From Spirochaetota bacterium (GTDB lineage Bacteria; Spirochaetota; Spirochaetia; Treponematales; Rectinemataceae), in NCBI GenBank assembly GCA_022711355.1, contig JAKLFE010000007.1, positions 17,776 to 81,775 of the forward strand: DNA of 64,000 nucleotides. Reading direction: 5' to 3'. A program made the position numbers and the translations under genes. The notes under the pieces are model-generated. The model was not told where the DNA came from. It was given only the letters and a program-made list of their open reading frames with translations, and did not search any database. Within the stretch, counting starts at the first letter, position 1. Every line of letters begins with the position of its first letter. Below, piece by piece: positions 56,324 through 57,727 of this stretch.

Positions 56324-56635
56324 TCAGCAGCAGCTCCCGCCCTTGCCTCCCCCGCAGCCGGCTCCCTCCCCGCAGCTCGGCGCGGTGCCGCGGAGCTTGC
56401 CGATGATGATAGCCGCCGCGCAGCCGACGCCGGGATCGACCGAGATCGCCGCCGCCGGACAGTTCCTCGCGCAGGCCCCGCACTCCATGCAGGCGCCGCG
56501 GTCGCGTATCTCGGCCTTCCCGCCGCGCATCTCGAAGACCGCGTGCGGGCATACGTCGACGCAGGCCGCGCATCCGACGCAGGCCTCCCGTTCGAGCTCG
56601 AGGGTCTCCCCGTTCTTGAGGTAGCTCAGATTCAT
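56324..56635 (-). CDS. hgcB: Mercury-methylation ferredoxin HgcB (2x[4Fe-4S]) with Cys-rich C-terminal tail
   Basis: Two CX2CX2CX3CP motifs (CVGCAACVDVCP; CMECGACARNCP), an additional conserved Cys (GVGCAAA) and a C-terminal …GGSCC vicinal-Cys pair. Lies 15 nt downstream of hgcA. Confidence 0.8.
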   Translation of the reverse strand: MNLSYLKNGETLELEREACVGCAACVDVCPHAVFEMRGGKAEIRDRGACMECGACARNCPAAAISVDPGVGCAAAIIIGKLRGTAPSCGEGAGCGGGKGGSCC

Positions 56636-56650
56636 GATACCCTCCTGGGC

Positions 56651-57727
56651 TCAAAGGAGCCTCGAGCCCGCCGCGAGGGCGAGGCCGGCGATCAGCGAGA
56701 CGAGCATCGGCCAGAAGCCTTGCTCGACCTCCGCCAAGGCTCCGGGCTGGGAAGTGAAGGTAGAGGAGCCCGTGAAATTCAGGGCGAGAAAGCCCGTTGC
56801 CGGAACGGCGAGGAAGAGGCCGGCCAGGGTCGCCAGGGGAGGCAGCCGGAAGGCGAGGCCGCAGGCCAAGGCCCATAGGGCCCCGAGGGCCGCGCCTTTC
56901 AGGGCGAAGGCGCGGCTCGGGAGCCAGGGCAGGAGGGCCGGGAAGAGCATCGTCCCGAGTGGTACCGTCCCGAGGAGGAGTATGGCCGCGGGCAGGGAGC
57001 GCTCGAGCCAGGCCTCGTCGAAGGGGAGGCCGTAGAGGCCGCCCAGGACGATCGCGGCGAGGAGGAGGGGCCAGGAGTGGACGATCTCGATAGGAGCCAC
57101 CGCCATACGCTCCCGAAGCGCGAAGCTGACGGTCCGCATGGCCTCGTCCTTGCGCTTCCCGGCGGCGAGCCAGGCCTTGATGTCCGCGGCGCGCACCGGG
57201 CCCCACGCGACGCGGAAACCCGAGCGCCGGGCGACCTCGGGGGCGGAGACCCCGGGGGCCCCGAGCTGGGGGAGAATGAGCTCCCGATGGCTCACGATCT
57301 TCCCGAGCCGGAGCGAGGAAAGCCGCGCGACGAGCTCCTCGGTGCCGAAGCTTCCCTTGCCCGCCGCGCACCAGACGTTGATGCCCTTCGTATCCAGCAC
57401 GAGGATCCAGGCGTCCAGGCCAGCGACGCTCGAGCGGAGGGCGTCGAAGCTCATCTTGTAGTTGGCGGAGACGAAGACCGGCGACTCGGCGCCGGGGGCT
57501 CCCGCGGCGTAGAGCCCGGGCAGGAGGCTGTAGCGCATGCGCCCCAGGCCCCACCTGGCCTTGAGGCCGCCCCAGCGGTCCGCGAAGGCGAGCCGCGTCT
57601 TGACCCGGGGAATGGTCCGCCCCGCGTACACGAAGAAGCGCTCCACCCAGGGCCGCTTGAGCTCCGCGAGCATGAGGTAGCCTGCCTGGCCCCGCATCGC
57701 GGGATCGGCGTTCAGGATGAGGCTCAT
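56651..57727 (-). CDS. hgcA: Mercury-methylation corrinoid protein HgcA (CFeSP-like corrinoid domain plus C-terminal 5-TM domain)
   Basis: Diagnostic cap-helix motif GINVWCAAGKG (the N(V/I)WCA(A/G)GK consensus), flanked by …RWGLGRMRY…SPVFVSANYK…LILPQLGAPGV…WGPVRAADI… and a hydrophobic multi-TM C-terminus. The ATG at 57727 overlaps the upstream MarR stop (ATGA). Confidence 0.85.
   Translation of the reverse strand: MSLILNADPAMRGQAGYLMLAELKRPWVERFFVYAGRTIPRVKTRLAFADRWGGLKARWGLGRMRYSLLPGLYAAGAPGAESPVFVSANYKMSFDALRSSVAGLDAWILVLDTKGINVWCAAGKGSFGTEELVARLSSLRLGKIVSHRELILPQLGAPGVSAPEVARRSGFRVAWGPVRAADIKAWLAAGKRKDEAMRTVSFALRERMAVAPIEIVHSWPLLLAAIVLGGLYGLPFDEAWLERSLPAAILLLGTVPLGTMLFPALLPWLPSRAFALKGAALGALWALACGLAFRLPPLATLAGLFLAVPATGFLALNFTGSSTFTSQPGALAEVEQGFWPMLVSLIAGLALAAGSRLL

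Follow-up and report, generated by a model that had tools for sequence, protein, structure and literature searches.

The gene pair hgcA-hgcB is, to our knowledge, the sole genetic marker known for microbial methylmercury production. The closest described system is that of Pseudodesulfovibrio mercurii (Desulfovibrio desulfuricans) ND132. Its functional set of residues comprises the cap-helix Cys93 of HgcA and, in HgcB, two CxxCxxCxxxCP motifs, Cys73 and at least one of the C-terminal cysteines Cys94/95 (PMC7305189, whose residue numbering is followed for ND132). In ND132 HgcB, the flexible cysteine tail and Cys73 take care of Hg(II) as the substrate and of methylmercury as the product (PMC7305189, PMC11588087). 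S-adenosylmethionine is the methyl donor and the corrinoid cobalt is ligated by a thiolate (PMC11588087). This report concerns a pair of genes that very probably represents a bona fide hgcA-hgcB of an uncultured high-GC member of the Spirochaetales, where it forms the last two genes of a marR-hgcA-hgcB unit. The pair lies in a stretch of 64,000 nucleotides of contig JAKLFE010000007.1 (assembly GCA_022711355.1, positions 17,776 to 81,775), and this whole stretch is referred to as the window.

We know of no tested hgcAB regulator other than the ArsR-like protein of one Desulfovibrionaceae strain. In ND132 the gene of the small Cys-rich winged-helix regulator ArsR2 (DND132_1054) directly precedes hgcAB and has the same orientation, and the ArsR-like hgcAB regulator of this strain responds to arsenic (Gionfriddo et al., bioRxiv 10.1101/2022.10.17.512643). 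For two cultured methylators, one sentence mentions genes of the MarR family upstream of hgcA (2023, PMC10349881), and 112 genomes were described as having an unnamed "putative transcriptional regulator" upstream of hgcAB (McDaniel et al. 2020, PMC7438021). Such MarR genes are found in Dethiobacter alkaliphilus AHT1 and Geotalea daltonii FRC-32, which are confirmed methylators and easier to access genetically. A regulator co-transcribed with hgcAB from an upstream position is thus on record already, as is the link of hgcAB with arsenic genes. Neither report gives a motif, an operator or linkage statistics. A literature search, which was not exhaustive, yielded no study of a MarR-type regulator of hgcAB beyond the sentence in PMC10349881 and no paper on the cysteine signature, on the operator or on how tight the linkage is, as presented below.

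The locus in the window resembles that of ND132 in gene order, in the corrinoid domain with its cap-helix Cys and in the five transmembrane helices of HgcA. The two HgcB proteins likewise share both CxxCxxCxxxCP motifs, a Cys some 12 residues past the second of them and vicinal C-terminal cysteines, and in both genomes hgcAB is linked to ars genes. In contrast to ND132, HgcA has a length of 358 aa here, with approximately 38 N-terminal residues outside the family profile, and HgcB (103 aa) has a longer Gly/Cys-rich tail with two extra cysteines (C88 and C94). The upstream regulator is of the MarR type, whereas that of ND132 is of the ArsR/SmtB type, and the host, a spirochaete, has a gene context of amino-acid fermentation. 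The cysteines of the two regulators differ as well: ArsR2 carries Cys47/49/86/88, the MarR protein CCGxxxxQCH and a C-terminal CC. With the regulators of PMC10349881 and PMC7438021, compared by description only, the position is the same, and for PMC10349881 the Pfam/COG family also.

The hgcA-hgcB pair

Both genes are located on the minus strand, hgcA at 56651..57727 (358 aa) and downstream of it hgcB at 56324..56635 (103 aa). The spacer of 15 nt (56636..56650) holds an AGGAGG ribosome-binding site. An earlier note, made from the letters of the window, had placed the pair at 56324-57727 with 15 nt between the genes, and these coordinates are exact. The frame of hgcA runs from the ATG at 57727, a start also chosen by public gene callers, to 56651, and neither gene contains a frameshift or an internal stop. 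The stop codon of a MarR-family gene (marR; 57724..58224, minus strand, 166 aa) overlaps the start codon of hgcA in the sequence ATGA. The three genes make up one unit, marR-hgcA-hgcB, with hgcAB at its distal end and translationally coupled to marR. The HgcAB architecture claimed in the note is genuine as far as the gene pair is concerned, but owing to this coupling the two genes do not stand as a unit by themselves. A mechanically derived open reading frame of 532 aa starting at 58249 was rejected as an artefact of the high GC content (approximately 70% in this genome); its upstream part is a separate gene in another frame.

HgcA scores 391.8 bits on the NCBIfam model NF040863 (HgcA_corrinoid; E 2.3e-117, profile positions 1-322 of 325) and HgcB scores 117.6 bits on NF040864 (HgcB_ferredoxin; E 1.6e-34, profile positions 1-93 of 93). 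The curated equivalog cut-offs of these models are 275 and 99 bits, respectively. Since the E-values are tiny and both scores exceed the curated cut-offs, the matches are not due to chance. In Pfam, HgcB is recognized by ferredoxin domains. For comparison at the species level the best 80 genome loci were used, among which the top HgcA match has 65% identity and the window's own species is not represented. A homologue of hgcB follows hgcA in 79 of these 80 loci.

The corrinoid-binding domain of HgcA comprises residues ~69-190 (57158..57523). It is of the Rossmann type and resembles that of CFeSP (corrinoid iron-sulfur protein), as had been proposed from the letters; the assignment follows from PF03599, phmmer, AlphaFold2 (AF2) and Foldseek. 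The AF2 model has a predicted local distance difference test score (pLDDT) of 84.3; in it, five long helices (residues 219-357) come after an alternating β/α corrinoid domain. These helices (219-232, 240-268, 274-292, 297-318 and 328-357) agree with five hydrophobic segments in the hydropathy profile (~215-237, 246-268, 275-293, 297-318 and 338-357). The multi-transmembrane C-terminal domain (56654..57106) named in the note is therefore a five-helix domain. In a Foldseek search of the PDB the top match of HgcA is 9a0b_A, the deposited model of ND132 HgcAB (42% identity over 322 columns, E 3e-18).

The diagnostic string GINVWCAAGKG, already reported in the note, is found in register at residues 115-125 (57353..57385). 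NVWCAAGK corresponds to residues 117-124 and includes Cys120, whose TGC codon occupies 57368..57370. The cap-helix motif string that Parks et al. reportedly gave in 2013 is N(V/I)WCA(A/G)GK. Residues N117-G123 (NVWCAAG) do not vary in any of the 44 aligned relatives; for K124 and G125 this holds in alignment A1, and in alignment A5 they are conserved to at least 90%. In the alignment to solved structures, Cys120 is located opposite a Thr of the CFeSP cap helix (...SVLTAW...).

HgcB carries the two cluster motifs expected of a two-[4Fe-4S] ferredoxin. The CxxCxxCxxxCP motifs read CVGCAACVDVCP at residue 19 (56546..56581) and CMECGACARNCP at residue 49 (56456..56491). Cys72 (56420..56422) lies 12 residues past Pro60 of the second motif. 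The tail contains Cys88, Cys94 and the vicinal pair Cys102-Cys103 (56327..56332), and the protein ends in ...GGSCC*, in line with the SCC terminus mentioned in the note. As judged from the sequence, each residue implicated in Hg methylation in ND132 has its counterpart here, namely Cys120, the two cluster motifs, Cys72 and Cys102-Cys103.

If the enzyme work on ND132 applies to this locus, HgcB would reduce the HgcA-bound cobalamin to Co(I) with low-potential electrons. S-adenosylmethionine would then methylate the cobalamin to a Cys-ligated methyl-Co(III) form. The methyl group would be transferred to Hg(II), held or delivered by the cysteines of HgcB, and methylmercury would be released. The earlier note took the presence of HgcAB to predict the capacity to make methylmercury; by analogy with ND132, the spirochaete of the window may well be able to methylate mercury.

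An identical HgcA protein is present in NCBI, where it is annotated as HgcA, and in JGI and ENA. It occurs on 13 contigs from several independent samples, including JAMIIT010000055.1 of GCA_035913395.1 and contigs of several ENA and JGI assemblies, and on these contigs the neighbouring genes are the same as in the window. The closest relatives of HgcA (55-78% identity) carry the labels Spirochaetes, Spirochaetia, Treponemataceae and Rectinemataceae. Spirochaete carriers of hgcAB have repeatedly been reported in the literature, where they are described as putative methylators. The finding of hgcAB is correct but already known, because NCBI already lists the identical protein as HgcA and because hgcAB with arsenic neighbours is documented for spirochaetes. 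With it a lineage of wastewater/digester-type spirochaetes joins the putative methylators, which is useful for risk mapping although not new.

A MarR-family regulator gene and its probable promoter

The product of the gene upstream of hgcA matches the Pfam families MarR_2 (59.5 bits) and MarR (51.5 bits), both above the cut-offs. None of the specific NCBIfam families is matched at its cut-off. An assignment to the ArsR/SmtB type found in ND132 was considered and rejected: HTH_metalloreg scores 26.5 bits with a cut-off of 55 and HTH_5 scores 25.7 bits, so that the scores of the MarR models are roughly double that of HTH_5. The AF2 model of the protein (pLDDT 90.5) shows the canonical MarR fold, a winged helix-turn-helix with dimerisation helices on its N- and C-terminal sides, and Foldseek finds YusO, MftR, MexR and MarR with a probability of 1.0 at sequence identities of at most ~31%.

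The protein has five conserved cysteines. C32, C33 and C40 belong to the segment CCGVTPAQCH, and C154-C155 belong to the C-terminal tail. In the model, the first three (CCG(V/I)xxxQCH) are placed where helix 1 ends and helix 2 begins, and the vicinal C154-C155 in a tail that is predicted to be disordered. The cysteine columns are kept in 22-24 of 25 homologues from many phyla, and C32, C33 and C40 are invariant in alignments A3 and A4.

The association of this protein with hgcA was examined in both directions. In the forward direction, tblastn finds a MarR homologue (30-55% identity) directly upstream of hgcA and on the same strand in 25 of the 80 genome loci. According to Pfam, MarR is the commonest upstream neighbour, with 27 of 76 upstream open reading frames. 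Six labels at the phylum level are represented among these loci: Spirochaetota, delta-proteobacterial groups (including Desulfatiglans), Bacillota/Clostridia, Bacteroidota, Candidatus Moduliflexus and Candidatus Wallbacteria. In the reverse direction, metagenomes were scanned for CCG[VI][TSN]x[ASM]QCH, which yielded 468 relatives. The best 80 loci were inspected and 69 of them have at least 300 nt of downstream sequence. hgcA is located directly downstream in 68 of these 69 loci; 66 were recognized by the automatic criterion, and L131 and L145 have it too, although their tblastn hits overlapped. The sole exception is L099, which has a flank of 335 nt and no visible hgcA.

Upstream of marR, the promoter scan detects a -35 hexamer TTGACA (58254..58259) and a -10 hexamer TACAAT (58232..58237) on the minus strand. 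TTGACA-16 nt-TACAAT (58259..58232) matches the consensus in 11 of 12 positions. It belongs to an AT-rich island, which is the sole strongly AT-rich stretch of the region, and the region contains three promoter-like sites where 0.1 are expected. The ATG of marR (58224), on which public gene callers agree for the 166-aa product, follows 7 nt after the -10 hexamer. Thus the transcript is probably leaderless or nearly so. The same 7-nt distance is found in L087 and L094-L098, whereas L100, L102 and L104 have a leader of ~15-50 nt.

Between the two hexamers lies an operator-like palindrome of 13 bp, ATGTA-TTA-TGCAT (ATGTATTATGCAT, 58237..58249). It was detected by comparison of promoters across loci and then tested statistically; a generic inverted-repeat search of the locus (seed 6) had missed it. 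When the promoters are aligned on the -35 hexamer, a common palindrome (A/T)TGTA-N3-TACA(A/T) emerges, often twice in tandem. The core TGYA-N3-TRCA occurs once in the 64-kb window (58238..58248), with 0.16 occurrences expected. Among 89 non-redundant regions of 140 nt upstream of marR homologues, 71 contain the core TG[TC]A-N3-T[AG]CA, compared with a mean of 0.84 and a maximum of 5 for shuffled regions. Its position is mostly 40-60 nt before the start codon. Like the marR gene itself, the palindrome is kept upstream of hgcA in several phyla. A palindrome over the core promoter is the usual layout for MarR-type autorepressors.

On this basis, the near-consensus promoter of the sigma-70 type would drive marR-hgcAB, and the five-Cys MarR protein would likely act as an autorepressor on the palindrome in the spacer. 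The DNA might be released when the thiols of the protein are oxidised, take up a soft metal(loid), or hold or give up a metal cluster. Candidate effectors are Hg(II), As(III), other thiophilic species, an Fe-S cluster and thiol oxidation. We tentatively propose, as a possibility to which we are not committed, that a dedicated five-Cys MarR subfamily might control hgcAB in this genome and at a large part of the bacterial hgcAB loci by means of a palindrome in its own promoter. Such a subfamily would be defined by CCG(V/I)xxxQCH at the α1-α2 junction and a vicinal CC in the flexible C-terminal tail.

If undescribed, the marR-hgcA-hgcB unit with its five-Cys regulator and operator is a modest, testable lead on the regulation of hgcAB. 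Should the subfamily exist as proposed, the effector of the MarR protein would report the native signal for hgcAB expression, which is a long-standing question. A second widespread, hgcAB-linked type of regulator with a recognisable operator would also provide an experimental handle, and the MarR/operator signature would be a simple sequence mark for the annotation of hgcAB loci.

Arsenic-resistance genes and alternative readings

The marR-hgcAB unit is situated inside an arsenic-resistance and thiol-redox island. Upstream and on the same strand (62097..59983) are the genes of ACR3 (61006..62097; TIGR00832 acr3, 398.8 bits), a rhodanese (60490..60981) and a low-molecular-weight-phosphatase-type (thioredoxin-type) ArsC homologue (59983..60417), which scores 115.3 bits on the arsC_pI258 family, under the cut-off of 174.3. 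ArsR (62258..62572, plus strand; HTH_metalloreg 74.7 bits) is divergent from them, and a DsbD/CcdA-type protein and a thioredoxin follow beyond ArsR. Between arsC and marR, on the opposite strand, the genes of a SigZ-like extracytoplasmic function (ECF) sigma factor (58315..58896; TIGR02959 176.6 bits, cut-off 168.65) and of an ArsP-like permease with a TPFCSCG motif (58981..59904; Pfam ArsP_1 123.6 bits) are found. The surroundings rich in metal(loid) and thiol-redox genes that the earlier note described are thus borne out by ACR3, ArsC homologue, ArsR, ArsP-like permease, rhodanese and the flanking pair of DsbD/CcdA-type protein and thioredoxin. According to the literature, ars genes are located near hgcAB in many genomes.

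The sigZ/arsP pair also stands beside marR-hgcAB in L094-L098, and an ArsP-like gene does so in L111/L112. Both genes are treated as context, and membership in the unit is not claimed for them. In L007 (1371-5410) and L008 (2468-5350), with 64-65% HgcA identity, the genes stand in the order acr3-rhodanese-arsC-hgcA-hgcB. In both loci hgcA starts at, or in overlap with, the stop of arsC; a divergent arsR is present in L007, where alone it was checked. The window looks as if an arsP-sigZ-marR module had been inserted into this ars-hgcAB arrangement, between arsC and hgcA. Close relatives thus show two solutions, with hgcAB either appended to the ars operon or placed behind its own MarR gene.

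It has to be asked whether the two genes could be something other than a mercury-methylating HgcAB. The larger gene might encode the CFeSP large subunit (acetyl-CoA synthase gamma, AcsC/CdhE) of the Wood-Ljungdahl pathway, with an unrelated ferredoxin gene next to it. PF03599 CdhD is the only Pfam match of HgcA (residues 70-159, 34.7 bits, cut-off 24.8), several public sources name its relatives "acetyl-CoA synthase subunit gamma", and the phmmer sequence search of the PDB returned no matches other than CFeSP chains (large subunits 2h9a, 4c1n and 4djd, E ~1e-9). A generic match to PF03599 is, however, normal for HgcA (PMC7305189), and the PDB chains match residues 69-189 only. This region is the homologous Rossmann-type corrinoid domain, C-terminal in CFeSP, which shares ~27% identity with the CFeSP large subunit (2h9a/2ycl/4c1n/4djd); in the Foldseek ranking the CFeSP chains come after 9a0b_A, with 123-131 columns and an rmsd of 2.4 Å. 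The gamma subunit model NF003195 gives 58.9 bits with a cut-off of 306, and its match is restricted to residues 70-190 of HgcA and profile positions 326-446 of 450. HgcA lacks the N-terminal [4Fe-4S] and TIM-barrel domains of CFeSP, has a five-helix membrane domain that is foreign to CFeSP, and carries a cap-helix Cys where CFeSP has Thr. No domain of carbon monoxide dehydrogenase/acetyl-CoA synthase was found among ~40 open reading frames of the window that were scanned or precomputed against Pfam. The profile scores, with HgcA_corrinoid as the best model, and the domain architecture refute an assignment to CFeSP, to which we attach virtually no probability. Neither of the two outcomes that the earlier note named as refuting it was thus observed, be it a motif that is absent or out of register or a closest profile match to a CFeSP gamma subunit without the transmembrane domain. 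It is also highly improbable that the two genes are a relic without activity, or a paralogue that does not methylate and is comparable to the fused HgcAB-like proteins. These paralogues have an NCBIfam model of their own, NF043039, which matches partially with 193 and 54.4 bits. Its cut-off of 285 bits is not reached, whereas the HgcA model scores well above its own, and here two separate, full-length and intact genes are present. The invariance of the key residues across the 44 relatives and the identity of the protein on 13 contigs from independent samples also argue against decay.

A different possibility is that the pair is a true HgcAB whose native function is a methyl transfer or redox step linked with arsenic or a different soft metal(loid), so that methylmercury would be no more than a by-product. 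The location inside the ars and thiol-redox island points in this direction, as do L007/L008, in which hgcAB ends an acr3-rhodanese-arsC operon. ACR3, ArsP, ArsC-type phosphatase and ArsR-type domains recur among the 76 upstream neighbours of hgcA. An ArsP-like permease with a vicinal-Cys motif adjoins the unit, and in ND132 an ArsR-like regulator makes hgcAB arsenic-responsive. Co-location is not equivalent to function, however, and all residues required for Hg methylation in ND132 are conserved here. Furthermore, such a role is compatible with Hg methylation and hence competes with it only in part. Overall, we consider a native function of this kind unlikely.

Several points weigh against the preferred reading, in which the three genes form a MarR-controlled unit for mercury methylation. 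In the AF2 model of HgcA, calculated without cofactor, the cap segment 118-125 has a pLDDT below 50 and no helix is assigned; because of this low confidence and the absence of the cofactor, the model adds nothing to the sequence evidence at the cap. In the publications consulted, spirochaete carriers of hgcAB are termed just "putative" methylators, and for this organism the activity is what we infer. L007 and L008, the closest species-level relatives among the matches listed, lack the MarR gene and have hgcAB joined directly to arsC. Therefore the regulator is not obligatory. That the MarR protein binds the palindrome, that it is a repressor and not an activator, and which ligand it senses are likewise points that we infer. 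Finally, a scan for intrinsic terminators detected none after hgcB, so that the MATE efflux gene 84 nt downstream (54881..56239, minus strand) could be co-transcribed with hgcB. This gene was rejected as a member of the unit, to which it probably does not belong: it is not located downstream of hgcB in any relative outside the species. A weak promoter-like site is present between hgcB and the MATE gene (56248..56277).

Other features of the locus and the window

A scan of the whole window at Rfam gathering thresholds gave no match, and accordingly no cobalamin or S-adenosylmethionine riboswitch is found near hgcAB. The window contains one tRNA gene, which is far from hgcAB.

The C-terminal end of the SigZ-type protein is rich in cysteine (ECCHFELD...CARCD), and its gene has no anti-sigma gene next to it. 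Possibly this protein is a second regulator of the locus that responds to thiols or metals. The ArsP-like permease, with the vicinal cysteines of TPFCSCG, does not reach the cut-offs for the SaoE and SO_0444 efflux families. Just past the end of the window, as seen in L001, a second ArsP_1 gene is accompanied by genes of a Thioredoxin_3 protein and a DGC-domain protein, an arrangement that resembles the third ars operon of ND132.

The fermentation genes announced in the earlier note are present as well. An aldehyde:ferredoxin oxidoreductase (AFOR_N/AFOR_C) is encoded at ~26100..27816 (plus strand). The region 49008..54849 (plus strand) holds amino-acid fermentation genes, with the alpha and beta subunits of an indolepyruvate-type 2-oxoacid:ferredoxin oxidoreductase at 49.0-51.3 kb. 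Further fermentation genes encode an aminotransferase and an ADP-forming acyl-CoA synthetase. Adjoining these genes are two sigma-54 activators (23867..25861 and 46699..48894). Three open reading frames have no Pfam match at E <= 1e-5: one of 1143 aa at 17444..20875 (minus strand), which is coding-like with a third-codon-position GC fraction of 0.94, one of 429 aa at 36826..38115 (plus strand) and one of 400 aa at 31009..32211 (minus strand).

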